Assembly: GCF_030684315.1 (NCBI RefSeq)
Contig: NC_081354.1
Span: forward strand, 64,392,321-64,456,320
DNA: 64,000 bases
Reading direction: 5' to 3'
From: Stegostoma tigrinum
Lineage: Eukaryota
Position 1 is the stretch's first letter. Each line of letters opens with the position of its first letter. The position numbers and the translations under genes were made by a program. Of the stretch, positions 3,781 to 64,000 are shown piece after piece. Below the pieces are notes generated by a model. That model was not told the DNA's origin, ran no database searches, and saw nothing but the letters and a program-made list of their open reading frames with translations.

Positions 3781-4006
3781 GATAACAAAGGGTGGAGCTG
3801 GATGAACACAGCAGGCCAAGCAGCATCTTAGGAGCACAAAAGCTGATGTTTCGGGCCTAGACCCTTCATCAGAGCTCTCTGATGAAGGGTCTAGGCCCGA
3901 AATATCAGCTTTTGTGCTCCTGAGATGCTGCTTGGCCTGCTGTGTTCATCCAGCTTCACACTTTGTTATCTCGGATTCTCCAGCATCTGCAGTTTCTATT
4001 ATCTCT
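3781..4006 (+). mobile_element. Non-autonomous fold-back derivative of the PLE 3' end (hairpin 3781-3970 plus 36-nt tail)
   Basis: ~94-bp inverted arms homologous to 39738-39830, each with the ctgatgaaggg..cccgaaa motif. Flanked by the duplication caagcaattt(t/c)tat (3767-3780, 4007-4020). Confidence 0.92.
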
Positions 4007-4339
4007 CAAGCAATTTCTATTCCTTGTTTGTTCTGCAGTATAGGGAGGCCATAAATACTGTGTAATGAGACAGCCAAAATTAATGCATTTGCATTTTCAT
4101 TGTTGGAAATTTGGTTTAGAATGAAAGCTCATCAACAGGAAAATGTGTGTTAACAGGATATCTAAATTAATTTAAATGTATTGAAGGTAATGAAAAATAA
4201 GTGTGCAATTATTTAGTGGTCTACAAATTTGAGATAGAAACATCGAAGCAGTGAGCGGAGCCTTATTGAGGCTTTAAGTTCTTGCCAGTTGGCTGGAGTA
4301 TAGGTCACAGATCCCCGGTGTCTCTTCCTGGGAAGGCTG

Positions 4340-4465
4340 TCTGCTCTTCAGCCAATCACAAGGATACTGGTGCTTATTGTCTGGAATAAGTCACGTGGGT
4401 ACATGTTGTGTCCAGTGAGAGCCGCCACTCAGAGAGGCCGCCAATTCTTTGACTTAGCAGCATAA
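4340..4465 (+). promoter_or_regulatory. Candidate promoter/enhancer motif cluster (CCAAT, E-box, ARE/AP-1-like)
   Basis: agccaatcac (4350-4359), gtcacgtgg (4390-4398) and tgacttagca (4450-4459) in a locally GC-richer stretch with no recognised repeat. Motif evidence only. Confidence 0.35.
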
Positions 4466-5542
4466 TTGAGGAAGCACTGGTTGCTGCCAGAAGGACACCC
4501 TCTGGATTCTTCAAATAAATACATCAAGGATATTAGTCTGCATAGTGGAAAGCCACAGAGGGTCTTGGTAGGAAATTCAGTGGTACTTTCCTTTGAACAA
4601 TGAATGAAAAATGATATTTCACTTAAAGTTGACTTTAATTTCGGAGTAGGCACCTGGAAGTTGGGACTCATTGTTCATTGATAGACCTGATAGCCTCTGC
4701 TGCAAGAGAGCTGTGGAGTTGAATAAATGGGATGCATTTGCAAAAAAAACTCTGCAATGCTAAGTGTTGCTCCTTCGGCAAGTGGAACTGAGGCGGTACT
4801 GTGTAGTTGGCACAAGTAGCATAGCTGCTGTCAAAAAGTACCACACTTCAGGGATGCACTTTTTGCAATAAGCAAACGCAACAGATCAAGTAGTACATAA
4901 AGGGGAATGGGAAGGACATACAGTATTAATTTCAGTAAAGGAAAATTAAAGAATTGTTTGAATTCTTAACAAGAACAACAGAAAGCAAGGAATGAAGAAA
5001 GACCATCTTCCTAAAAAAAAGCCATCTCTTTTTACAGAATATAATCAGTTTTTCATTGATTTTATTTGAGACATTTAGTCTCTGAGAGCATCAAGCATTA
5101 GTTTCTTAAACATAGAGTAGGAACAGTTTATCCTTGAACAGATGCTTCCAATATCATGACATTCCCATGGTCCTAATGGCCTATAAACTATTATATTCTA
5201 ACTCATGTTGGATCATCCTGTATCTATATTTATCTTCTTTTAAACCATCATTTTATTTTAACCAAAAATATATGCAGCTGTTATCACATTTAATGACAGT
5301 CTTGTCCAAGGTTTCTGGGAACATTCTTCTTTGGGTGGTGGGGCGAATTCCTCTAAACTCCCAGCACTTGTTGCTTGTTAATTTTTATGTTTGATTAGTC
5401 TGGTTTGGTTGTACAACGTGACAACACTTTTTTAAAAAAAATCCACTTTCAAGATTCTGATCCTGACAATTTAAGAGTCAGACCAGATTAATTATGCTAA
5501 AAAAAATCAAATTAATGCATTAGGGAACACAAATTGCTCAAG

Positions 5543-5664
5543 AGATAGTAGGAACTGCAGATGCTGGAGAATCTGAGATAACAAGATGTAGAGCTGGATA
5601 AACGCAGCAGCTCTTCTGATGCTGCTTGGCCTGCTGTGTTTATCCAGCTCTACACCTTGTTATC
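5543..5664 (-). mobile_element. Internally deleted fold-back derivative of the PLE 3' end
   Basis: Reverse tail (ggaactgcagatgctggagaat) plus inverted arms gataacaag..../....cttgttatc. Duplication acaaattg(c/t)tcaag on both sides. Confidence 0.88.
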
Positions 5665-6639
5665 ACAAATTGTTCAAGCAGGGATTGGCGGTAAAAACAC
5701 AAATGAGACCAAAGTTACTTAACCTTTTGTGGTTCACTTCCCTTGCAATGCTAGGTGGATTGTGGCAGGAGTGATAGAAATTTGACAAGGAAATGAATGT
5801 GCTAGCTCTTGATTTTATGCTAAAATTTCCTGTTGAATCTCATGAGGGGTAAATTTCTACACTTAACTGAAATGCCACAGATATTGACAAAAAATTAATA
5901 TCACTAACTCTCTGACTACCTTCAGTCAAATAAACATTGTAGAAAATCTGGGATATCAGTCACAGATCAGAGTAAGCCACAATCCAGTTTCATAATTGTC
6001 AATTCACTTTAATAAAATGTACATCAAGTAGCCTTCCCTGTCAGTTGGAGAGTTAAAATATGAATGTTTAACAAGCAACTTCATTTTTAATTGTGCAAAA
6101 GAGCAATAATTTTTAAAATTACATTGTTTTGATCATTCGTGTACCACAGGAGTTTTCTTAAAGCCTTTAGAGAGATGAGCACTGTGGAGGCTGAAATGCA
6201 TCATTTCTCGCAACGTTTCCATGTTGATTTAATGCCCTCCTTTTCTCCTACTCTTTGTGCTATTGTTGCACTGGCCCTGGTGGAGAGTTGTTATAATTTG
6301 TTAACAGTTTAATTAGTCAAATTGTAGATTTGTTGGTGATTCTATTATTAGAAAAATGTCTCGACATCAAACATACTACAAAATGTCAGTCACTATAGCA
6401 AATGACGGATGTAATTAAATATGTTGCGAGTCTTAAACTTAGAAATGCTTGTATTTTTATAAACTCAATTTATAATTTGTACGTTTTAATAAGGAAGGAA
6501 CTATCACCATACATTCGATCTCGGTTAAAATCTAGTATATTTTCTAATTTCTGTCACTCAATATATGATATCACTAGTATATTATATATATTTATTTTTC
6601 CCTATTTCTACAGCCACTTATCCTGCATGCTGTCAAAAT

Positions 6640-6860
6640 AGATAATAGACAACTGGTGCAGGAATAGGCCATTTGGCTCTTTGAGCCAGCACCACCATTC
6701 ATTATGATATGGCTGATCATCCCCCATCAGTATCCTGTTCCTGCCTTATCCCCATAACCCATGATTCCACTATCTTTAAGAGCTCTATCCATCTCTTTCT
6801 TGAAAGTATCCAGAGACTTGGCCTCCACTGCCTTCTAGGGCAGAGCTTTCCATATATTCC
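6640..6860 (-). mobile_element. CR1-group LINE 3' fragment
   Basis: Reverse of the typical end (aggcagtggaggccaag...aagggttatgggga...atcagccat...aatggcctattcctgc). Confidence 0.75.
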
Positions 6861-8879
6861 ATAAAATCATTGGAGCCATTGCCTGTTTCCTGGTTTCAGG
6901 CACTAATTTTTCATCCTGCTTCACTTCTCCTGAATTTTCTCTTAGGATTGTAACAATACAAATCTTAATCTTTCCTTACTCACCATATTTTGAAAACTAC
7001 AACTCTAATCCTACAGTAAAGTATTAACAAGTTTAACGTCTCAGTTTTAGTCATTATCTGCTACTGGATAAGATTAGATTACTTGATTCAGTTTGCGTAC
7101 TGTGCAGAAGCAAATATCTGAAACATAGAAATTTATCTCACTCGGAGTAAATTCCTTGCATTCTTAATTGTTCCCTTTGCACATTCATGTATCGTAAACA
7201 TATAACTGCCATTTTTTTAAAAACAGGACAACCAAGTGTAATCCTAGTTAACAATCAAAATATTTCTATTATACACAATTTGACTGTTTTGCAGCTTTGC
7301 TACCTTTATGAGCTAAGTATATATTAATATTTAAGCATCATAATTTCTGTTAATGAGTCTGCACGTATGCGAGGAGTACTTTAATTCCATTTGTGTCATG
7401 TAAGTTAATAGTTGCGCAAAACTAGGAGCACTTGTGACTTTCAATGTAGTCAACATATTGACAGAACACAAAAAATCATTACGAGGACAAACTGTCCTGG
7501 TATTAGGTATACACTCATGTTTTTGAATGTTCAATGATAATTCAGAGGTAACGTGTACCTAATTATAGATGATCTATGTCATATTATATGCCTCACTTCA
7601 ACCTTGGGGTGAAATATTGTTTACATAATGTGTTGAGTGGCTTGAAGCAACAGTAGATGTGGCGGCAGCAACAAGGTCAGGAAAATGGTGCTTGAGAGCA
7701 ATACTTCATGCTTGTAACTGACAGCGCACTCCTCAGATCACTAAAAAATATTCTGTATCTTGGAGACACAATCCTTCCTACCACCTGCATATATTGAACA
7801 ATGTTTTGTGGAAGCTGGCTTTTGGGTTTGCAGGTCACAGGTACACGTAAAGTGGAGGGACTTTGCATAGCCCAACCACCAATCCTAACCTGTTTAAAAT
7901 TTTAGAGGTGCACAAGGTGAGCTCTTCTGAATTAACATGCACAAGTGGTCAGTTTATTTTGCCCCTGGCAGGAGATGTTCAGCGATGGGGTCAGGGATGT
8001 GATTAACTCAATAAGTGACTCTTCATGTAACTTGGCAGGGTGACAATGCCATGGAACAAGATGAGGGACACCCTGACTCTGGCAGAAGGTGCCAGTGATC
8101 ATGCCGAAAGGGTTGGGGGCGGGTGTGCTTGCTGGTGGGGTGGGTCTACAGGTGAGCATAAGAGTAGAGAAGAGGAACTTGGTGATCATGAAACTGGTGG
8201 GAGTTCCAAAGAGCTGGGAGAGTGTTAAACCCATCAATGTCCCCTTTTCTAGTTGGCTGTGAGTAACCACTCACCCATATCAACTGCTCCCCCAAGCCAA
8301 GTTCTGCTCCAAGTGCTCTATCAGGATTCCTGTCCCCACAAATTCAAATAATCAGTTAGTAAGTCATCAATATGCAGGTAGAATATGGAATTACAACACC
8401 ACTGGATATATTTAGTCTCAGGAAGTTGGGAATCACGGATCACCTCTCGACCCTTGAATTTCCTTGCAATTCACTAAAAGTTAACAAACACAAGCATGAA
8501 ATCTCACAACCTAAATTAAGAAGTGCAGTAACTTCACCTTTTCTTATAAAGAAAATAGCTTATTTCTAGATAGAAGCTTCTGCAACCTGAATTTTGGCTG
8601 CCAAAGGTGCAAAGTTGGGAAAACTCCTAGGCCCACTAACTTGAGCCAGGTAAAAATATTCCAGAAGTTGGGATTTCCATTCCAGGGCATGGGTGAGGGT
8701 GAATATGAGCAGCTGTAGTTCAAAACTCTGGAAAGAATGTGAAGGCTTCCATGGATAGAGGTAGACTGGTAGAAGACCCACCTTGTTGTGCTGTCATTTA
8801 GTTGGACCTAGTTAGTAGAGTTGGCCGAGTGCGTGATTAAGAATAAAACCAGCAGCAGTTCAGTCTCCATATTTGCTGA

Positions 8880-9268
8880 GGCAGCTTTTCCTCTAGCCAT
8901 GAGGGTTCTGGTCAGAGTAAATAGGAAGCAGATAGATGGGGAGAAATTGTTCCCACTCAACAAGAGATCAAGAACATCAGGGTCAGATTTAAAATAATTG
9001 TGAAAAGGTGAAATAGTAATATGAGGAAAAAAAAACTTTCTCATGCACTGAGCAGTTAGGGTCTGGAATCCACTGTTTGCAAGTTATAGTTCAAACTTTG
9101 CATTCATAAAGGGATTTAGATAGTTACTTGAAAAGGAACAGTGTGTGACTTTACAGGGAGAATGAAAGAGAATGGCATCAGGTGGAATCCCCATGTGGAA
9201 AGATGGTGTTGACACAGTGGGCCAGATGGTCGTCTCCTACATTGTAATAATTATTCTGTGATTCTGTA
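8880..9268 (+). mobile_element. Degenerate CR1 3' fragment
   Basis: gagaaattgttcccact...aaaactttctcatgcactgagcagttagggtctggaatccactg, ending ttctgtgattct. Confidence 0.65.
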
Positions 9269-20579: not shown

Positions 20580-21505
20580 GAGCAAAAATAAACATTTTGT
20601 AATATGAGGTGCTGCATTTTGATAAGGCAGATCAGAATGTATATACTTAGTGGTAAAGTCCTATGGAATAAAGAGACTGCTTGTCTTTTTTGGTCAGTGC
20701 ATTGAGTACAAGAGTTAGGAGGTCCTGTTGTGGCTGTACAGGACATTTGTTAGGCCTCTTTTTGGAATACTGTATTCAGTTCTGGTCTCCCTCCTGTAGG
20801 AAAGATGATGTGAAACTTGAAAGGGTTCAGAAAAGGGATAGCAGGACCTGCAGATGCTGGAGAACCTGAGATAACAAGGTGTAGAGCTGGATGAACACAG
20901 CAGGCAAAGCAGCATCAGACGAGCAGGATAGCTGACATTTCGGGTCTAGGCCCGAAATGTCAGCTATCCTGCTCGTCTGATGCTGCTTTGCCTGCTGTGT
21001 TCATCCAGCTCTACACCTTGTTATCTCAGGGTTCAGAAAATATATACAAGGATGTTGCCAAGGTTGGAAAATTTGATCTATGGGGAGAGGCTGAATAGGC
21101 TGGGGCTATTTTCCTTTCATTGCAGGCTGAAGGGTGACCTTCGAGGTTTATAAAATCATGAGGGGAATGGATAGGGTGAATAGCCAATGCCTTTCCCTAG
21201 GGTAGAGGAGCCTAAAACAAGAGGGCATAGGTTTAAGTTCAGAGGGGAAAGGTTTAAAAGGGACCTAAGGGGCAAAGCTTTTACACACTGGGTGGTGAGT
21301 GTATGGAATAAGTTGCCAGAGAAAGTGGAGGACGCTGGTATAATTACAACATTTAAGAGACATCTGGATGGATACATGAATTGGAAGGGTTTAGAGGGAT
21401 ATGGGCCAAATGCTGACAAATGTGTCGAGATTGATTGAGGATATATGTTTGCATGGATGAGTTGCTTGGAAGGGTCTGTTTCCATGCTGTACATCTGTAT
21501 GACTC
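20580..21505 (+). mobile_element. CR1 3' fragment interrupted by the PLE palindrome
   Basis: LEYCIQFWSP...KLERVQK before the insertion; TRGHRFK...WNKLPEKVEDAG after it. Confidence 0.88.
20835..21027 (-). mobile_element. Fold-back PLE derivative (perfect 80-bp arms) inserted in a CR1 fragment
   Basis: Arms 20865-20944 and 20951-21030 are exact reverse complements. 13-bp TSD agggttcagaaaa (20822-20834, 21028-21040). Confidence 0.93.
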
Positions 21506-34853: not shown

Positions 34854-36245
34854 CAAGGAAAACATCTATCTACTCTCTTTTCATAGTTGAATTGCTTCAG
34901 CCCAGGCAACATCTTGGGAAATCTCTCTGTACCCTCTCTAATGCAATTGCATCATTCCTATAGCATGACAATCAGAACTGCACACAGTACTGTGGCTGTG
35001 GTCTAAATAATATTATTAAGTACAGCTCTATCAGAGCCTCCTTGCTGTTCTATTTCATGCAACGACTAACAAAGGCCAGCACCCCATATATGGTCTTAAC
35101 CACCATATCTACCTGTCCTGCTGCCGTCAAGGATCTACGGACATGCACACAAACATCTCTGTGATCCTCTATACTTCCTCCGGTCCCAACATTCAACTGT
35201 ACTTCCTTGCCTTGTCGGTCCTCCCAAAATACATTACCTTTTACCTTTGAGGATTAAATTCCATTTGTCACTGTTCAACCCATCTGACCAGCTGGTCTAT
35301 ATTGTCCTGTAGTCTAAGGCTTCCCTATTCACCACTTAATCGAGTTTCATGTTGTCTGTGAATGTACTCAAGATACCGTCTACTTTCTTGCCTAGATCAT
35401 TAATGCAAGCAACAAACAATAAGGGACCCAGCAGTAAACCCTGTGATATGCCAATTGACACATGTTCCTGTCACAAACACACCCTTTCAAACATCGCCAT
35501 CTTGCTTCCGTCTCTGAATTAATTTTGGAACCAATTTGCCACATTGCTTTGGATTTCATGGGCTGTTAGCCTCTTAACTAATCTGCCATGCAAGATCTTG
35601 TCAAAAGCCTGACTGAAATTCATGTAGACTACATTAATTGCATTTATACTCATCCACCCACTCGGTCACTTCCTCGAAAAAATCAATCAAGGTTATTAAG
35701 CATGATCTCCCCCTTACAAAGTGATGTTGACTATTCTGATTAATCCTTGCCTCTCCAAGTGGAAATAATTCTGTCCCTTCGGAATTATTTCAATTGTTTT
35801 CCTGCCACATATGTTAAGTTCAGTGGCCTTTAGTTTCCTTGTTTATTTCTACCATTCTTCTGGAAAACAGAACCTCTAGTCATCTGTGGCCAGAGATGGT
35901 GTGAAACTTAATGTCAGAGCCCCTGTAATCTCCTCCCTACAGTAACTTGGGCTGTATCTCATTTGGGCCTGGGAACTTATCTTTTTTCAAGCTTGTTAAA
36001 ACTCGTTCAAGTACATCGCAATTCCCCTCCCTTGATTACTGTACCCCACATCATCCTTTGCTGCAGCAAATACAGATGTAGAGTCTCTCATTTCAATACC
36101 TCCGCTATGTCTTCCTGCTCCACACATGGATTGACATGTTGGTCCCTAACAAGCTCTATTCTTTCTCTATTCTCTATTCTCCAGCATCTGCAGTTCCCAT
36201 TATCTCTGATACTATTTTAACCTCACTGCGAAGCCTCTTCCAGGG

Positions 36246-39200
36246 ATGCCTAACCTGAAGAAGTTACCCTCCTCCCTCCAGACCAACTTCAGGGAATCTC
36301 TCTCCCATTGCAACTCTCTTGTAATCTCTTCGGCCTTGAAACTGCTCGACCATGTCCTGAAGCAAACCAGGTACCACAGCCACATCACCTTCCTCAGCAC
36401 CTGCCTACGGAACCAGATCATCCCCAAGGGACTACAGTCCACATTTCAGCCTTCCCAATTTTGCCCCAACCGTGACCACCTCTACACCCACAGCATTCAG
36501 ACCCTTCAGAAGCGTTTCTCCCTGCGAGTCCTGAAACAGACACTTGCAGCCATGCGCCGGCACCTCCAGGCACTGCAATCCAGCCTGCCCCAGCTCAGAG
36601 CCTCCCTCTCCCAGACCTGCAAAGGACCTCTGCTGTTTTTTATCCTCCGCAGGATCCACAGACTGAACACCCAGTTTCACTCAGCTTTGCTGGACACCAA
36701 AAATTGTAAGTACAACCAACTCACTGGCCCCTGCCACCCACAAGAGGATTCCTGCGCCTCCCAAATCCTGAGTCTGTCCCTGCCCCTCCCCCACCATGCA
36801 CCCGCCGCCATTGACCATGAGGACATGGCCGGAGACCCCACCGATGACGTCACATCCACCTCCGCTGGCCACAGAACTTCCGGAACCGCTGCTGCAGTCA
36901 CCACCTCCACTTCCAGGTACAACACCCCACACACCACCCTCACCGCAGCTGCTGCCGCCCACCCCGATCCTCCAACCGCCGACGGAATCCCGCCCATGGC
37001 CGACGGAATCCCGCCCATGGCCGACGGAATCCCGCCCACGGCCGACGGAATCCCGCCCACGGCCGACGGAATCCCGCCCACGGCCGACGACCTCATCGCC
37101 CCGCCCACAACCTCCGCAGCCAGCAACCCCAGAGAAGACAGCCACACTGAGCCCTGCCGCATCTTCACCGTCCCCCCAGACCTCCCACTGACTGAGGAAG
37201 AACGGTCAGTCCTTAGTAAGGGGCTCACCTTTTGTCCCCCTACAACCACACATCAACGAATACCAGTCACGGTTGGACATAGAGCAGTTTTTCCGCCGTC
37301 TTCGCCTCCATGCCTACTTCTTCAACCGGGAACCTAACCCTCCTTCCACTGACCCCTTCACCCGCTTCCAACACAAGTCCTCCTCCTGGACACCACCCCC
37401 AGGCCTCCTACCCTCCCTCGACCTCTTCATCTCCAACTGCCGTCAAGACATTAACCGCCTCAACCTCTCCACCCCTCTCACCCACTCCAACCTCTCCCCC
37501 GCAGAATGGGCAGCCCTCCGCTCCCTCCGCTCCAACCCCAACCTCACCATCAAACCCGCAGACAAGGGTGGCGCAGTGGTAGTATGGCGCACTGACCTCT
37601 ACATCGCCGAGGCCAGACGCCAACTCTCTGACACCACCTCCTACCGCCCCCTCGATCGTGACCCCACACCCGAGCACCAAACCATCATCTCCAACACCAT
37701 TCACAACCTCATCACCTCAGGGGACCTCCCACCCACAGCCTCCAACCTCATTGTTCCCCAACCCCGCATGGCCCGTTTCTATCTCCTTCCCAAAATCCAC
37801 AAACCTGCCTGCCCTGGTCGACCCATCGTCTCAGCCTGCTCCTGCCCCACCGAACTCATCTCCACCTATCTGGACTCCATTTTCTCCCCTTTGGTCCAGG
37901 AACTCCCCACCTACGTCCGTGACACCACCCACGCCCTCCACCTCCTCCAGGACTTCCAATTCCCTGGCCCCCAACACCTCATATTCACCATGGACGTCCA
38001 GTCCCTATACACCTGCATTCCGCATGCAGATGGCCTCAAGGCCCTCCGCTTCTTCCTGTCCCGCAGGCCCGACCAGTCCCCCTCCACCGACACTCTCATC
38101 CGCCTAGCTGAACTCGTCCTCACACTCAACAACTTCTCTTTTGACTCCTCCCACTTCCTACAGACTAAGGGGGTGGCCATGGGCACCCGCATGGGCCCCA
38201 GCTATGCCTGCCTCTTTGTAGGTTACGTGGAACAGTCCCCTCTTCCGCACCTACACAGGCCCCAAACCCCACCTCTTCCTCCGGTACATTGATGACTGTA
38301 TCAGCGCCGCGTCTTGCTCCCCAGAGGAGCTTGAACAGTTCATCCACTTCACCAACACCTTCCACCCCAACCTTCAGTTCACCTGGGCCATCTCCAGCAC
38401 ATCCCTCACCTTCCTGGACCTCTCAGTCTCCATCTCAGGCAACCAGCTTGTAACTGATGTCCATTTCAAGCCCACTGACTCCCACAGCTACCTACAATAC
38501 ACATCCTCCCACCCACCCAGCTGCAAAAATTCCATCCCCTATTCCCAATTCCTCCGCCTCCGCCGCATCTGCTCCCACGATAAGACATTCCACTCCCGCA
38601 CATCCCAGATGTCCAAGTTCTTTAAGGACCGCAACTTTCCCCCCACAGTGATCGAGAACGCCCTTGACCGCGTCTCCCGTATTTCCCGCAACACCCCCCC
38701 CCCCCCCCCCCCCCCCCACAACCGCCCTAAGAGGATCCCCCTCGTTCTCACACACCACCCTACCAACCTCCGGATACAACGCATCATCCTTTGACACTTT
38801 CGCCATTTACAATCCGACCCCACCACCCAAGACATTTTTCCATCCCCACCCCTGTCTGCTTTCCGGAGAGACCACTCTCTCCGTGACTCCCTTGTTCGCT
38901 CCACACTGCCCTCCAACCCCACCACACCCGGCACCTTCCCCTGCAACCGCAGGAAATGCTACACTTGTCCCCACACCTCCTCCCTCACCCCTATCCCAGG
39001 CCCCAAGATGACATTCCACATTAAGCAGAGGTTCACCTGCACATCTGCCAATGTGGTATACTGCATCCACTGTACCCGGTGCGGCTTCCTCTACATTGGG
39101 GAAAACCAAGCGGAGGCTTGGAGACCGCTTTGCAGAACACCTCCGCTCAGTTCGCAACAAACAACTGCACCTCCCAGTCGCAAACCATTTTCCACTCCCC

Positions 39201-39597
39201 CTCCCATTCTCTAGATGACGTGTCCATCATGGGCCTCCTGCACTGCCACAATGATGCCACCCGAAGGTTGCAGGAACAGCAACTCATATTCCGCCTGGGA
39301 ACCCTGCAGCCTAATGGTATCAATGTGGACTTCACCAGTTTCAAAATCTCCCCTTCCGCCACCGGATCCCAAAGCCAGCCCAGTTCGTCCCCTCCCCCCA
39401 CTGCACCACACAACCAGCCCAGCTCTCTTCCCCAATTCCCCCCCCACCCCCACCCCACCCACCCACCCACTGCACTGCATCCCAAAACCAGTCCAACCTG
39501 TCTCTGCCTCCCTAACCGGTTCTTCCTCTCACCCATCCCTTCCTCCCACCCCAAGCCGCACCCCCATCTACCTACTAACCTCATCCCACCTCCTTGA
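36246..39597 (+). pseudogene. Disrupted single ORF of the Penelope-like element (about 1100 codons when repaired)
   Basis: ORF-track pieces 36246-37337, 37273-38292, 38609-38794, 39008-39214 and 39079-39597 join after removing single extra bases in homopolymers (~37230, ~38237, ~39102, ~39188). One in-frame TGA at 38792-38794. Confidence 0.88.
36978..37089 (+). repeat. 21-bp coding minisatellite (gccgacggaatcccgccca[c/t]g, 5.3 copies) encoding ADGIPP(T/M)
   Basis: Directly visible tandem units; frame-preserving. Confidence 0.95.
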
Positions 39598-39739
39598 CCT
39601 GTCCGTCTTCCCTGGACTGACCTATCCCCTCCCTACCTCCCCACCTATACTCTCTCCACCTATCTTCTTTACTCTCCATCTTCGGTCTGCCTCCCCCTCT
39701 CTCCCTATTTATTCCAGTTCCCTCTCCCCATCCCCCTCT

Positions 39740-39769
39740 CTGATGAAGGGTCCAGGCCCGAAACGTCAG
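39740..39769 (+). ncRNA. Minimal type-I hammerhead-ribozyme-like motif in the PLE 3' end
   Basis: CTGATGA-A-[gggt ccag gccc hairpin]-GAAA-C-GTC contains the CUGANGA and GAAA boxes, stem II and a GUC cleavage triplet. Minimal hammerheads are an established feature of PLE termini. Stem I is very short and activity is untested. Confidence 0.7.
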
Positions 39770-41637
39770 CTTTTGTGCTCCTGAGATGCTGCTTGGCCTG
39801 CTGTGTTCATCCAGCCTCACATTTTATTATCTCTATTCTTTCTCTAATTGTTTTCTTGCCCTGAGTACACTCTCAAATTGCTTTTAATTTTCTTTAATGT
39901 TACCCACTCATGTCCTCTCTTTCTCAATTTCTTCTTTCAGCAACCCATGACCTTTCTAAACTGCTTTAGGACAATCACTGTTTTAAACCTTTTGGATATA
40001 TCATAACTTCTTTTTTCGTTATCTTATTCTGTACATTCCTTGGCACCCTGGATTATTTGGTTTTAATGGTCCCACCCTTCAATTTTACAGGAACATCTTA
40101 GCCCTGCACACCCACTTTCACCTCTTTAAATGTCTCCCATTGCTCTGTGGATTTTACACCAAGTGGTTGCTCCCAGTCCACTTTGGCCAGATCCTGCCTT
40201 GTCTCATTGAAATAATCTTCCCCCAATTCAGGACCTTTGTGGTTCATTTTTGGCCTTTTCCAAAATTACTTTAAAACTTAGGGTCACTGTTTGGTATACT
40301 TAGCTTTTTGCAGGATTGCATCTGCTTCCTCAGCACTTCACTTTGGCATTGACTGTGTGATGACCATCTTGTCCCACTTCTTCCTGAGCATTTTCTCGAA
40401 GACTTCCTAGACTGCTTCAGTGTGGCCCTTCTCTTTTCATCTCTACAAAGGCGTTCAGTGTGTTGCCTGAGTTCCTTGAAGCATGCTGTCTCCCAGGTCA
40501 TGCCGTTCTTAAACAGTTTTTCACTTCACAATGCCTAATACAAGGACATCTACTATCGGTTGTAGCCACTATGCTCCTTCGCTTAGGAGATGCAGGCTGG
40601 CGTGAAGTAATGCTAACTAGTGATTAAGCTGTGTTTGCCGCTCATGATTTAGACTACCTGCTGATGCCTGTAGCTGCAGAACAATACATTTAATGGTGAC
40701 TGTTCATTATAATACTTGACACAAAATCGGCGTTTTGCTGGCATCACGTTGCACCATCATTGGGTAATTGCACATCATGAGGTCTAAACTCACTTTTCGG
40801 GCAGTATCCAATTTAGCCCCCTGTGCAGAATCAATCCTATGATAATGTGAAAATATATGTCAAACATTTTGGAAATATGTAATTAAAACAGGTATTTTTG
40901 GAAACTTGCAGAAGGCATATTGGCATATAAAGAAAAAAATGGATGAGTTATCATGAAAGTCTGTGTGCAATATATTTCTGTTACATATTGATTTTATTTG
41001 TTTTGTATTTTACTGTCTCACATGCAATAACAGTTAGATAGATCAGACCCAGCAACTCCTAATGGCTTCCTTGTCAGTTTTAAAGTAACTTTGCAGGGGA
41101 AAAATACCTTTGTTTGAAAAGTAGCTTGTGCTGAAAGTATTTGATTATTCTGAATTGTCATGAAGTTATTCAGTCAAGCCACTAGTTTATCCTAATTTTA
41201 TTCTCCCGTTCAAGTATTCGTATGATTTTGGATAACTTCAGCTGTACTGTTTGAAGGACACGTATTTTGGGTGGACATTATTATAGTCAGACTGAAGTGA
41301 TTTTTTTTAAATTAACAGCAACATTTCTTCCAGTCCAAAGTGGCTGCCTGGCGTGGTGACACCTGTCTCGTGAACGGAGAATTCCATTTATCTGTATCAA
41401 AAATGATAAACAGTTTTAAAATACCAACGGATTAACTGTTGAAAAAAGAAGTTTAATGTAGTAGCCAGCTTTAGGCCAGGAGTTTGATGGACTTAGCTTG
41501 GTTTCCAGTGAGAGTTGCCTATTCTTGTTGTTCTGTACAAACTAATACTTACTGTTTACTGTTTCGAATTCCTGATTACAGTGTATTCCACAAGTGGAGT
41601 AAAGCACATGCTAATTGATGGTGTTTCTCTTTTACAG

Positions 41638-41739
41638 TCTGACAGCAATGCAAGCTTCCTCCGTGCTGCCAGAGCAGGGAATCTGGACAAAGTGCTTGAA
41701 TACCTCAAAGGAGGGATAGATATCAACACATCAAATCAG
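41638..41739 (+). CDS. ANK2: Ankyrin-2 coding exon ([34 protein letters not shown]), first ankyrin-repeat exon
   Basis: Polypyrimidine acceptor tttctcttttacag|TCT and donor CAG|gtgtgt. 102 nt, phase 0. The peptide is nearly identical to recalled vertebrate ANK2 [34 protein letters not shown]. Confidence 0.95.
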
Positions 41740-50354: not shown

Positions 50355-52699
50355 GCAAGTAACTGAAACATGTCACAATCGACAATACTCTACAATTGGC
50401 CTAAAACTGGCAACACACAAGTTGCCTTCTATCAAGCAGTGTCATACTTTTTGATGTTAGCTCTTCTCCTAGTATCACTTTGCCATTCATCAATATGTGA
50501 ATTTATGAACCAGTTCTGAACCTTGAGTTTCTATTTCGACTGACTTGTCTTTAAAGCATTAAGCAAATGTATTGTAACAGTACTTCACCATTCAAAGTCT
50601 TTGAAAAATTGCTAGAGAATGATTTTTCATATATCCATGGGCACTGTTCAGTGCTTTTGTGTCTTTCCTATCATTTTGATAATTGAGCCTGCAAATTAAG
50701 AATTGCAGCCAATGTGGGACTGGGGAGTTCAGTGGAGACTGACTCTTCGCCCACAGCAATCAACGTGCTAACAGCTGACTTACAAACTGATAGGTTGATT
50801 ACAAGCCTTCAGAATGGAGTCTCCCCCTGTCAGAAGCTGCCAGCCCAGCAGAAGAGGTTAAGTGGCTTTCTTTCGCTTCTCAGTAGGAGGTTGTGTGGAA
50901 AAGGAGTTCAGGGGAGTTGGTGGCAATGGCAGGGATGTGGTTTTAAAAGACTGTTGCCATTCCTCCCATTTGGGCCTTCATTTGCTCCCAGGATGTGGAA
51001 GACTGATTCCCCGGCATCACCACCCGTGATAAACAGGCAGACAGGTTGCCCTGATTTCCCAGTCAGGAAACCAGCCACTTTTCTTCCCTGCCAGAGAGGT
51101 AGGTAATTGGGCTGGTGGTGAGTTGAGACAATTAAATTTGTGAGTTGATTGACCAATATAGAGCATTAAATGTTGGCAAATTGAGAAAATCCCCAGGGGG
51201 TCCCTCTAATCCAGCACTTAATTAGTGAGAGGTGGGGTGGTGAGAAGGGGCAAGGAGTCTCTCCAGAACTAACTTATCCAATTACTTTCTGATCTTACCA
51301 CTTCTCTTGACGACAACGTGGTGGAAAAATTGCCATTCAATATCTTTACAAATTGCTTATAAAGGCTCTGAGTTTGGAGTATGATTTGCAGTTTACAAAT
51401 TGCAGCCCTTATCACACGTTGTTATCCTTATAATATGCACTTGAAAGGGCATCTTAACCTGTAGCAAAAACAAAATAGTAGTTCGATACTACCTTGTCAC
51501 ATAACCTTGAGTATCCTTTAGGTCTGTGATTTATATTCTCTCCAAGTTATTTGTGTTTCCGATGCTTATTGTTTCACATTAAATGTTATTGCAATCCAGC
51601 TCCATGAGTCTATGCATATATATGTATTGTTTGCAAGTACATAATTTTCTCAAGTATCAGCAATAGTTAGTTAAGAAATTTAGCAGAATCTATCTTGCAG
51701 TTAATAATCCCTCAGCACTTAGTGGCAGCTGCAGAGCAGAGTGTAATATGATTCCCCAGGAGACATTTTAACTTTCACCATCATGCAGACAGCTGGTACG
51801 GGGATTAACCCCACTCCTCCCCGACAGACTGTGCCTTATATTCCTTCCCAGTGTGAGAAAGGTAACACAATAGTCATGGGCTGTTGAACCTTGAAGTCAA
51901 TTGGACAAATTAATTTGACAAAGATAGACTTGAGGAAAAGTTTACACAATGTGTTTGCCACTGTAACATTGAGCAATATATTCTGGTATAAACCAGGAAG
52001 AGGCCAAAAGTGACCACCATATTGGTAGTGACACCGTAGCCTCTGCTCAATATCATAGCCACAAGCCCTGAACCTTGTCCAGGTCTTGGGCTCATTTAGT
52101 ATTACCAACAAACTATTTGGATGCTCTTTAGCATCTTACTGGATTGCTGCAGTGGCAAATTAGCTGCCTTTTCCATGGAGCTACATGGAATGGAGGGGTG
52201 AAGATGAGATTAGGCTGACATCTAGCAGAGTTTGGTGAGTCCAGAAGGAAAATTAATGCTGCATTTAGTCTTAGTGAAATAGTTTTTTTTATCTTGAAGA
52301 AGCAAAAACTCGCTTTTGCTGAAAGGCTTCCACTGATCCCTTTTAAGCCACCAAGCACTGACCCCAGAAGCAGATCCTAATTGGCTAAGATGGTGGCCTA
52401 ATGCTGACATAGTTTGGTTAAAAGACCTGCTTTGGTTGGCTGCTGTGTTATCGTAGTTCAGGTTGTGGCTGTTAGGCTTTCTAGCTCTCACCATTCACAC
52501 CCCCTCAGCTTCCACCCATCGCTTCCACAGAATTTCATACTCTTTATTCTACCTCCATGCCAACACACGCCTCTTTCACCCACCCAAGTCTATGACGACT
52601 TAAACCCACATGTCACCTCCATAATCATTCACCCAGTATTCATCATGAGCAGACCTCAACAGCAATGTATAAATGAAAAGAAAACTAAAACCAATCCAA

Positions 52700-52888
52700 G
52701 ATAACAAAGTGTGCGGCTGGATGAATACAGCAGGCCAAGCAGCATCTTAGGAGCACAAAAGGCTGACGTTTTGGGCCTAGACCCTTCATCAGAAATTTGT
52801 GCTCCTAAGATGCTGCTTGGCCTGCTATGTTCATCCAGCTCCACACTTCGTCTCGGATTCTCCAGCATCTGCAGTTCCCATTATCTCT
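52700..52888 (+). mobile_element. Fold-back PLE derivative with partly deleted right arm and 36-nt tail
   Basis: Same arms and tail (attctccagcatctgcagttcccattatctct) as 3781-4006. A hammerhead-like motif remains only on the - strand, with GAAA changed to AAAA. Confidence 0.9.
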
Positions 52889-54659
52889 AATACAGCTCCC
52901 ACTCATTCACACTCAGTACTAAAATAACACTCCATTTGTGACAGCCATTCAAAACCTTTGAATCTCTTCGGATGTTTAATCTCTGACAGAAATCAACAAA
53001 TTTGTATTCAGACCCCACATCAAAGGCAGCAAATGTTGTAATAGCTTCTTCATGCTGTCAATCACGCTGGAAATTCAGAAACCCCTACTGAGACAATTGA
53101 AGCTCTTGAAACTCTGTTAAGTATTCATCATGGCATAATATCCCTTGGAGTAACGTGACCAAAGAATTCTTCTAAAACTGCAGGGCAAGATAGCATTTTT
53201 CTTCTTCCTAATCTCCATCAGATGGGCTGTCAATCAAAGCAATTCAGGAGAGTTTTAACTCCTGACAGTTTAAGCCTATTTTAGTTTTAAAGGGTGAGGG
53301 GTTTGGTGGAAATTTTCTTAAAAATGACAGACCTTATCCACCCTTCAAGAATGTTTTATAACTACTCCATAAATTTGTAACCCCAGTGTGGATTAATGCC
53401 CTTGCAATAGGTGCTGAATGTCTGTTTGAAACTCGGCATTAGTTCAAATGGCCCAGCTGAGTTTGGATTTTCTTCCCTGTGAGATTCACAGTCTACCCCT
53501 TCTCATTGCGAGTAAAACAGTTAATCTGTCAGAGGAAGTGGGGTCAGGTATTCGGTTTCACCAGCTCACCATTTGTATAGCTCCACATGCTTTTCGAAGT
53601 TTGCAATAAATTTGGCTTTTTATGTCCAATTTTAACTGTCACACTTTTTAAGGAGATTGTCAAGTACTTCGAAAAGGTGCAAAGGAAATTTGCCAGAATC
53701 GTAGCAGAGATAACGAAATCCAGTTGTGCAGAGAAACTAGAAATTTTTATGGCAGAGTGAAAAGGCTTTTATCTTTGGGTGTGCCTGTATTAAACCTCAC
53801 AAGATGCATTTACGTAGCATCTTTAACGTCATAAATCATCCAAAAGTGCCTCTTAGGAGTGATATTGAACAAAACTTGACTGAAGCCATGTAAGGTGATG
53901 CTACTTTTAGTAACAGTACTGGAGTTGAAGAGGTAGAATTTGAAGATCAGCTTATGAAAGATAGAGAAGAGAAGAGGCTAAGAGGTTTAGAGAGCACATT
54001 CCAGAGCATGTGAACTGGATGTCTAGAGTTAGGGCTGTTGGTTCTGTTGCAAAAGTAATTAGGGAATCCCTGTGATTAATGCTAACAAAGAACCTGGATC
54101 ATGGAAATGCATTGTTCCATAACAATATTGCTTCAATAACCTCTTAAAAATGCACTTGAGCTATTTTTCACTTTCTATGCCATATGCTAATAAATGGTGC
54201 TTGATTCAAAATTGAATTGGCAGCGTTGTCACCCCAATAGCTTGAAAGAACAGCAAAGTGCCATCTTAAGAGATCTACCACTGGAAGTGCAAATTCCATT
54301 TTAATATGCAAAACATGATCTGAGAACCATGATGACCTTTTCAGTTTGGAACAATATGTGTTGTGCATACTTGGGCTATTTTCTTAGGTGTTGGTACCAG
54401 AGAAGTCTCACAATATAAGTTTTAGATTTTGTTTGTGTGGAGTTATTTACATAAACGTGAGCAAGGGGAGCATGTTGTAGAGTAGCCTTAAGCGGGTGAT
54501 TTATAGAGCAATACCAACCTGATCCTCAAACAAGTATGTGAAAGTGAAAATTAGTCACATAGATTTGTTGTTTTAAATAACTAAAAACAATTTTTTAAGC
54601 TCTTCACTTTCTTCACATGTTTATTGTGAATAGCAAGCTAATTTAGTTAATTAACATCC

Positions 54660-62863: not shown

Positions 62864-64000
62864 TTCGCCTCCACGCTTACTTCTTTAACTGGGAGCCTAA
62901 CTCTCACTCCACTGACCCCTTCGCCCGCCTCCAACACAAGTCCCCTTCCTGGACACCACCCCCAGGCCTCCTACCCTCCCTCAACCTCTTCATCTCCAAC
63001 TGCCATCGAGACACTAACTGCCTCAACCTCTCCACCCCTCTCACCCACTTGAAACTCTCCCCCTCAGAACGGGCAGCCCTCCGCTCCAACCCCAACCTCA
63101 CCATCAAACCCGCAGACATGGGTGGCGCAGTGGTAGTATGGCGCATTGACCTCTACATCGCCGAGGCCAAATGCCAACTCTCCGACACCACCTCCTACCG
63201 CCCCCTTGATCATGACCCCACCCCCGAACACCAAACCATCATCTCCAATACCATCCATGACCTCATCACCTCAGGGAACCTCCCACCCACAGCCTCCAAC
63301 CTCATTGTTCCCCAACCCCACACGGTCCGTTTCTATCTCCTTCCCAAAATCCACAAACCTGCCTGCCCTGGTCGACCCATTGTCTCAGCCTGTTCCTGCC
63401 CCACCGAACTCATCCCCACCTATCGGGACTCCATTTTCTCCCCTTTGGTCCAGGAACTCCCTACCTACATCTGTGAAACCACCCACCTCCTCCAGAACTT
63501 CCAATTCCCTGGCCCCCAACACCTCATTTCACCATGGACGTGCAGTCCCTATACACCTGTATTCCTCATGCAGATGGCCTCAAGGCCCTCCGCTTCTTCC
63601 TGTTCCGCAGGCCCGACCAGTCCCCCTCCACCGACCCCCTCATCCGCCTAGCTGAACTCGTCCTCACCCTCAACAACTTCTCTTTCGATTCCTCCCACTT
63701 CCTACAGACAGAGGGGGTGGTCATGGGTACCCGCATGGGTCCAAGCTATGCCTGCCTCTTTGTAGGTTACGTGGAACAGTCCCTCTTCCGCACCTACATA
63801 GGCCCCAAACCCCACCTCTTCCTCCGTTACATTGATGACTGTATCAGCGCCGCCTCTTGCTCCCCAGAGGAGCTGTTCATCCACTTCACCAACACCTTCC
63901 ACCCCAACCTCAAGTTCACCTGGGCCATCTCCAACACATCGCTCACCTTCCTGGACCTCTCGGTCTCCATCTCAGGTAACCAGCTAGAAACTGATGTCCA
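62864..64000 (+). mobile_element. 5'-truncated second copy of the same Penelope-like element (RT region), running off the window
   Basis: Colinear and highly similar to ~37301-38462. Encodes IKPADMGG, FYLLPKIHKPACPGRPIVS and YIDD, with several small deletions and frameshifts. Confidence 0.95.

Follow-up and report, generated by a model that had tools for sequence, protein, structure and literature searches.

The ribozyme motif and its element in ANK2

The window, meaning the whole 64-kb stretch of Stegostoma tigrinum DNA analysed here, contains a hammerhead-like motif near the 3′ end of a Penelope-like element (PLE), and the first ANK2-like exon of the window lies 1.87 kb downstream of the motif on the same strand (Table 1). 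This agrees with the original prediction, in which the motif was placed about 1.9 kb before the first visible ANK2 exon and on the transcribed strand. The best natural-protein match of the exon is AnkB, with 63.2 bits vs 45.8 bits for ankyrin-1, and designed repeat proteins outscored AnkB. The + strand has additional ankyrin-repeat exons between 47193 and positions past 159,000. Upstream of the window start, at 173 kb (L078) and 78 kb (L068), are two stretches that we take to be candidate alternative first coding exons of ANK2; they are two of six pattern matches and were picked for their resemblance to ANK2 first exons. Each closes with a basic run and with a GT donor whose phase agrees with that of the exon at 41638. 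Given these candidates upstream and the ankyrin exons downstream on the + strand, the motif likely lies in intron 1 of ANK2 in the sense orientation.

Table 1. Positions of the motif, the element and the neighbouring exon within the window.
Feature	Position	Strand	Remark
Target-site duplication, left, 16 bp	36154..36169	+	
Penelope-like element, one unit, 3.66 kb	36176..39832	+	Motif near 3′ end
Optional tail of 30-40 bases between two inferred reverse-transcription start sites	36176..36210	+	
Broken ORF for reverse transcriptase (RT) and GIY-YIG endonuclease	36246..39350	+	3′ end approximate
CX4CxxC zinc-finger-like linker between RT and endonuclease parts	38942..38968	+	From translation
Candidate 3′ splice site of element intron	39575..39717	+	CTAAC branch-point-like motif, then pyrimidine-rich tract, AG
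Stem I, 2 bp, CT before core and AG after cut	39738-39739 with 39768-39769	+	
C3-A9 core box CUGAUGA (CTGATGA)	39740..39746	+	Sequence inspection
Bulged A (9.1)	39747	+	Between A9 and stem II
Stem II, 4 bp, GGGT/GCCC, tetraloop CCAG	39748..39759	+	Closing pair G10.1-C11.1
GAAA box	39760..39763	+	Second catalytic box
Palindromic ACGU, 15.2-16.2 position	39763..39766	+	Without loop
C-GTC, ending in C17	39764..39767	+	Predicted cut after 39767
Target-site duplication, right, 16 bp	39831..39846	+	2-base overlap with element end
First ANK2-like exon of window, internal, phase 0	41638..41739	+	Normal splice sites

The intact hammerhead-like core that had been claimed for the + strand in the region 39738-39772 was present in the sequence, and stem III is reduced, as proposed, to the palindrome ACGU. 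Positions 39740-39767 hold the core of the minimal hammerhead ribozymes (min-HHRs) with CUGANGA, GAAA and UH all intact, together with an unpaired base between 9 and 10.1, the pair G10.1-C11.1, a palindromic 15.2-16.2 from which stem III can be formed only as a dimer, and a location inside the pLTR of a Penelope-like element. Helix I of published min-HHRs reaches down to 2 bp, the length of stem I here. Judged by these sequence features, 39740-39767 is an intact minimal type I hammerhead and an added member of the published PLE min-HHR class, in line with the view that it belongs to the PLE-type minimal forms that need a second copy. The proposed check against hammerhead models went the other way: the Rfam hammerhead models gave no match at gathering score in the whole 64-kb window, and in 39500-40000 with E values up to 10 a single, unrelated match was returned (E = 9) and no hammerhead. 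An AUG within the catalytic box starts a 13-codon ORF, 39743-39784, which is lost in a variant at position 7.

In other copies of the family, joints within contigs showed that 39832 continues into 36176 across 4 bases, and the copy at the locus is therefore one unit, without a 5′ pLTR and with a single ribozyme. Partial pLTR tandems, inverted 5′-truncated partners and the optional tail are present family-wide, while the copy at the locus is a monomer. Matches to the tail began at 36176 in 85 of 100 cases and ended mostly at 36204-36212. The copy is young, with long stretches of up to 97% identity to other copies. In two samples single contigs span both element edges at single-copy depth, so that an empty allele was not observed; the contig data are four sets from one study, and contigs drop rare variants.

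The first AUG of the main ORF is at 36246. Relative to family contigs the ORF has one extra base each at 37230, 38237, 39102 and 39188, all of them in homopolymers, where errors of assembly may be the cause; it is also interrupted by an in-frame stop at 38792-38794. RT motifs and the VVY..YIG endonuclease motif are readable in the translations. On the broken ORF pieces Pfam RVT_1 scored below its cut-off (E = 0.0084), and no match was obtained for the Pfam endonuclease domain. A CX2-5CxxC linker between RT and endonuclease marks the Neptune and Nematis clades according to PMC8557442, and the element, whose linker points to one or other of these two, is likely Neptune-type. The N-terminal part of the ORF also contains a 21-base in-frame tandem repeat of 5.3 copies at 36978-37089. 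Elsewhere in the window another fragment of the family is found in sense orientation at 62864-64000, 91% identical to 37301-38463 and ending at the window edge, and short pLTR copies occur as head-to-head inverted pairs at 3781-4006, 20868-21027 and 52699-52893. In the pair at 3849-3902 stem III is CpG-decayed on both arms.

Abundance and conservation of the motif

The two catalytic boxes alone matched three times in the window vs 1.98 expected, which is within chance, and all three matches are copies of one repeat family. The full 28-base pattern was found in 98,247 exact copies in the 3.2-Gb genome, balanced between the strands (48,984 forward, 49,263 reverse), and in none in the reversed control. 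A descriptor consisting of the core plus stem II gave 106 matches in 1.264 Mb, 99 of them with the bulge, vs 5 in the reversed sequence. Copy number and the reversed-sequence controls rule out a chance origin. The motif is one of about 100,000 family copies and not a single intronic curiosity, and the genome contains 311,650 pLTR copies.

As regards selective conservation of the catalytic boxes among family members, on which the original prediction was made to depend, the core, the bulge and also the 2-bp stem I are kept across subfamilies and families. Among 132 sampled copies covering the core, conservation was about equal in the core and in the sequence downstream of it, leaving the boxes without contrast to their flank, and the shared non-CpG variants within the motif were confined to position 7, loop 2 and a change of a U-G to a U-A pair. 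Genome-wide, a variant at the free position 7 was carried by 4,296 copies and a core-breaking change of like kind at the neighbouring catalytic A6 by 289, a difference that speaks for selection on the fold but compares one pair of positions only.

The shortness of stem I (about 2 bp) had been regarded as the weak point of the motif. Its length was confirmed, with exactly two pairs in 44 of 53 sampled copies; no longer stem I was found in these 53 copies and folds of the flanks gave no better helix. At pair 2.2/1.2, C-G occurs 90,823 times genome-wide, U-G 12,418 times, U-A 1,315 times and the C-A mismatch 632 times, classes that share ancestry and reflect few events, and the level of the mismatch fits neutral decay. 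A second family has A-U at 2.1/1.1 of stem I. In other families of the genome the core, bulge and palindrome are retained; their stem II differs in sequence, and their stem I measures 1-5 bp. From the pair classes, the sampled copies and the other families, a stem I of 2 bp, with compensatory changes, is characteristic of the family and no sign of decay. The second Penelope-like family (e.g. L164, L169 and L271) has a stem II of 6-7 bp, a stem I of 3 bp and an AC-rich tail, and a third has a stem II of 5 bp and a GUU cut site.

Copy starts and junctions at the predicted cut site

The points at which family copies begin were sampled from 250 matches downstream of the cut in 1.264 Mb, reduced to 245 by dropping piece edges and duplicates and to 230 by removing 15 tandem-array units, the source of a start peak at 39774. 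Among the 230 copies 94 began at 39730-39749 and 6 at 39766-39770. Because part of the peak at 39739 comes from older subfamilies with differing upstream sequence, the young copies were recounted: 36 of 89 began at 39730-39749, 2 at 39766-39770, and 41 extended past 39610. Among the 29 long relatives, the ORF is preceded by a whole ribozyme in 12, two of which have CpG decay in stem III, and one relative begins next to the predicted cut. With sampled starts mostly away from the cut and the whole 5′ ribozyme in these 12, most insertions appear to derive from uncut RNA. The cluster at 39730-39749 coincides with the 5′ edge of the ribozyme, where many copies have an inverted partner, and may mark a pLTR transcription start or RT drop-off; starts there yield many SINE-like copies of 95-140 bases.

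When starts were scored genome-wide as copies whose three preceding bases mismatch the family, 3,158 fell at 39768, 492 at 39770 and 172 at 39766, and starts at the cut thus defined make up about 1-2% of the 311,650 pLTR copies. Among 100 starts listed at 39768, 65 join two copies head to head through the AGCT palindrome, a product that microhomology could give with no cleavage involved. With these joins set aside, 39768 exceeds its neighbours no more than about 1.4- to 6-fold.

Among head-to-tail junctions, contig joints connect both inferred RT start sites (one at 39832 plus 4 bases, the other near 36209) back to exactly 39768. A search for junctions at about 39757-39769 gave 153 matches, and among 100 listed 87 were at 39768, 8 at 39767, one at 39769 and 4 further upstream; counted by hand, 47 of 56 loci from this search had a junction at 39768. 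A second search at 39763-39775 (124 matches) again gave 87 of 100 listed at 39768, from loci that largely overlap with those of the first search. Of 75 junctions at the second start site, 57 were compatible with 39768, in a search range that disfavours upstream junctions, and a script count over 60 fetched loci (L211-L270) placed 58 of 74 junctions there. The cut that had been predicted after 39767 thus corresponds to the base at which junctions resume across the family. Junctions at 39739 and 39754, outside the range of the searches, had a contig depth similar to that of the cut-site joints. In arrays with units of 68-70 or about 104 bases the upstream end varies from junction to junction while the downstream start is fixed, as repeated template jumps off one constant RNA end would give. 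Where the upstream end lacks an A, the sequence after the junction nevertheless begins with AGC, which identifies the end as 39768 and not 39769.

An older subfamily does not share this pattern, with only 3 of 29 matches at the cut and 14 near 39756 with microhomology (10 loci viewed). In the second family 55 starts coincide with the cut, 19 lie at −2 and 177 at +2; among 100 listed +2 starts 67 are A-run insertions, and 4 of 15 viewed cases are internal deletions and not ends. In favour of cutting in this family are one tandem joined at the cut and four blunt head-to-head pairs, both arms of which stop there. Junction searches at the second start site of the second family and in the third family gave no matches, an outcome that counts neither for nor against cutting. 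Arrays with units of about 50 bases (L151, L147) derive from downstream of the older subfamily's ribozyme and start near 39774, not at the cut. Contig joints from 36276-36331 to 39652-39690 are head-to-tail and would give units of about 300 bases, each with a whole ribozyme, that is, retrozyme-like tandems which would be natural dimer substrates elsewhere in the genome.

We favour, with some reserve, the reading that the genome holds a base-exact DNA record of germline cleavage by a PLE hammerhead with a 2-bp stem I, in which RT runs off the cut end and jumps repeatedly. Two motifs, either in the 5′ and 3′ pLTR of a partial-tandem transcript or on two RNAs, would pair via ACGU to form stem III, and both dimer pairing and cutting would probably be helped by the element's protein. 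Cleavage would give such RNAs a constant 5′ end, at 39768. From one of the two internal sites, about 70 and about 105 bases downstream, reverse transcription would then proceed, run off the cut end and sometimes jump back to a start site, giving head-to-tail arrays of 68-70 or about 104 bases. Uncut RNA would remain the template of most insertions, with cleavage affecting a minor share.

The same end could also arise if the motif were kept as a structural or promoter signal and 39768 were produced by an RT stop at the hairpin, by transcription start or by a host nuclease. The predicted hairpin of the isolated motif has its 3′ base at 39769, but RT halted before this hairpin would leave ends at 39770 or 39769; copies begin at 39770 six times less often than at 39768, and unambiguous junctions at 39769 were found once among 100 listed and once among 75 at the second start site. 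A transcription start would suit 39768, which is an A after C, a common dinucleotide for transcription initiation; a cap might then leave an extra G, and the junctions have no regular extra G. The palindrome AGCT at 39768-39771 could favour joining at this position, yet no direct junction has more than a single base of homology. Two further points on this side are the lack of a clear peak at the cut in the older subfamily and the second family, and the report on Anolis, in which no RNA ends at the cut are described (PMC11167929). Conservation of the catalytic positions across families goes beyond what a hairpin alone would need, and on balance we regard an origin of the 39768 end other than self-cleavage as unlikely.

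The intronic copy, ANK2 transcripts and known systems

Cleavage of host ANK2 pre-mRNA, which the original prediction had offered beside cleavage of element RNA, was not upheld for this copy: there is no 5′ ribozyme, the nearest intact sense copies are 41-47 kb off, inactive folds are predicted to be far more stable and sense copies are not depleted. For 39738-39772 an inactive hairpin is predicted at −11.4 kcal/mol and 84% of the ensemble; in it the CUGAUG box is base-paired to the strand of the cut site. Two separate monomers, at −22.0 kcal/mol, and an inactive duplex, at −30.6 kcal/mol, are both predicted to be more stable than a double hammerhead (−4.5 kcal/mol), in a model that leaves tertiary contacts aside. 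From the first candidate exon to the last ankyrin exon 26 pLTR copies are sense and 23 antisense, with 8 vs 4 intact (p = 0.39), a small sample that gives no sign of purging of sense copies in ANK2. The copy is likely an inert passenger in the ANK2 intron.

That it might nevertheless cut or regulate ANK2 pre-mRNA, together with another intronic sense copy or with element RNA in trans, we consider very improbable. Its core is intact, it lies on the transcribed strand shortly before an exon, intact sense copies are present in the probable same intron, element RNAs could be abundant, and domesticated intronic hammerheads are known from amniotes (PMC6155905). The nearest intact sense copies are, however, 40.8 and 46.7 kb upstream, stem III of the copy at 3879 is decayed, and an antisense copy at 52699-52793, 13 kb downstream, is predicted to pair over about 95 bases at −171.6 kcal/mol, which far exceeds a 4-bp stem III. 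In addition to the undepleted sense copies, the youth of the copy means that its intactness needs no host selection.

An effect of the element on ANK2 apart from the ribozyme, through a pLTR splice acceptor or an internal promoter, is the least probable reading of all, for although a sense AG at 39716-39717 sits 22 bases before C3, preceded by a branch-point-like motif and a pyrimidine-rich tract free of AG for about 140 bases, is conserved in long copies (A in 51 of 52, G in 52 of 52, the next two bases variable) and has counterparts in other PLE pLTRs that carry promoters and introns (PMC6765202; PMC4209133), the same signal is present in thousands of copies, a crude motif scan of 39718-40490 found no strong splice donor, and spliced pLTR-intron copies were absent among 15 DNA joints listed of 129.

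We hold it to be probable that the motif is a minimal type I hammerhead in an abundant PLE end repeat, that the copy itself is likely inert, and that the family's ribozyme likely cleaves, after GUC, a minor fraction of the element RNAs. The intronic copy is in itself of little consequence, whereas the junctions at the family level bear on whether weak PLE hammerheads cut in cells. They provide a testable model of minor, likely protein-assisted cleavage that is dispensable for transposition, and if this is true, junction mapping would be a general, assay-free DNA readout of genomic hammerheads active in vivo, cheap and applicable to other genomes. Dimer cleavage of PLE hammerheads is reportedly the subject of Lunse et al. 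2016.

The min-HHR class in metazoan PLE pLTRs was published by Cervera and de la Pena 2014 (PMC4209133), where single min-HHRs are reported as inactive and dimers as weak in assays, and where in vivo evidence of cutting by PLE hammerheads is stated to be lacking; PMC8557442 likewise calls the function of PLE hammerheads unclear. Ribozymes in pLTRs, tandems and inverted joins are described in PMC6765202, PMC5680766 and PMC3846280, in accounts that do not mention cut-site junctions. No earlier report of such junctions was found in the literature searched, which did not extend to Arkhipova 2006/2017, Repbase and the figure supplements of PMC4209133 and PMC11167929.

Three comparisons concern the class of the motif and the locus. 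A canonical type I hammerhead was rejected on the absence of an Rfam hammerhead score and the incomplete helices I and III. Domesticated amniote intronic hammerheads such as RECK share the type I architecture, the host intron and the sense strand, but RECK-type ribozymes are canonical and conserved at one locus across species (PMC6155905), whereas the copy here is young, belongs to a family about 100,000 strong and cannot form stem III by itself; a RECK-type monomer-cutting fold was discarded, as stem III has no loop and the inactive hairpin is predicted to dominate 39738-39772. The non-LTR retrozymes (Li et al. 2026, bioRxiv 10.64898/2026.07.22.740005) are likewise derived from PLE pLTRs, non-coding and in some cases arranged in head-to-tail arrays. 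As described there, each retrozyme unit has a whole hammerhead, while the arrays found here contain only the part downstream of the cut. The locus itself is not a retrozyme, having no tandem and being an ORF-carrying monomer of a coding element.

Closest in structure are the min-HHRs of PMC4209133, with which the motif shares the core boxes, the bulge after A9, the pair G10.1-C11.1, the palindromic 15.2-16.2 without loop 3 and the position in the pLTR, and the family shares the predominance of dispersed single copies from truncated elements and the inverted pairs. Helix I has 2 bp here vs 4-5 bp in S. mansoni, although that of D. virilis also has 2 bp, and the helix II of 4 bp is a further difference from the min-HHRs in that account. 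The 98,247 exact copies here compare with 4,000-9,000 in coelacanth and Xenopus, and the cut-site junctions have no described counterpart in that paper.

The Poseidon element PAc of Anolis carolinensis (Frangieh et al. 2024, PMC11167929) resembles the present family in having two internal RT start sites that bound a tail of 30-40 bases, in that most insertions span the ribozyme with uncut RNA as the main template, and in a ribozyme that likely needs protein help; the Anolis ribozyme is reported to cut only with protein and to be dispensable for insertion. Unlike PAc, the element here has the Neptune/Nematis-type CX4CxxC linker and its main ORF begins about 165 bases after the ribozyme, and, where RNA ends at the cut were not found for PAc in that study, the present family has DNA junctions on the cut.
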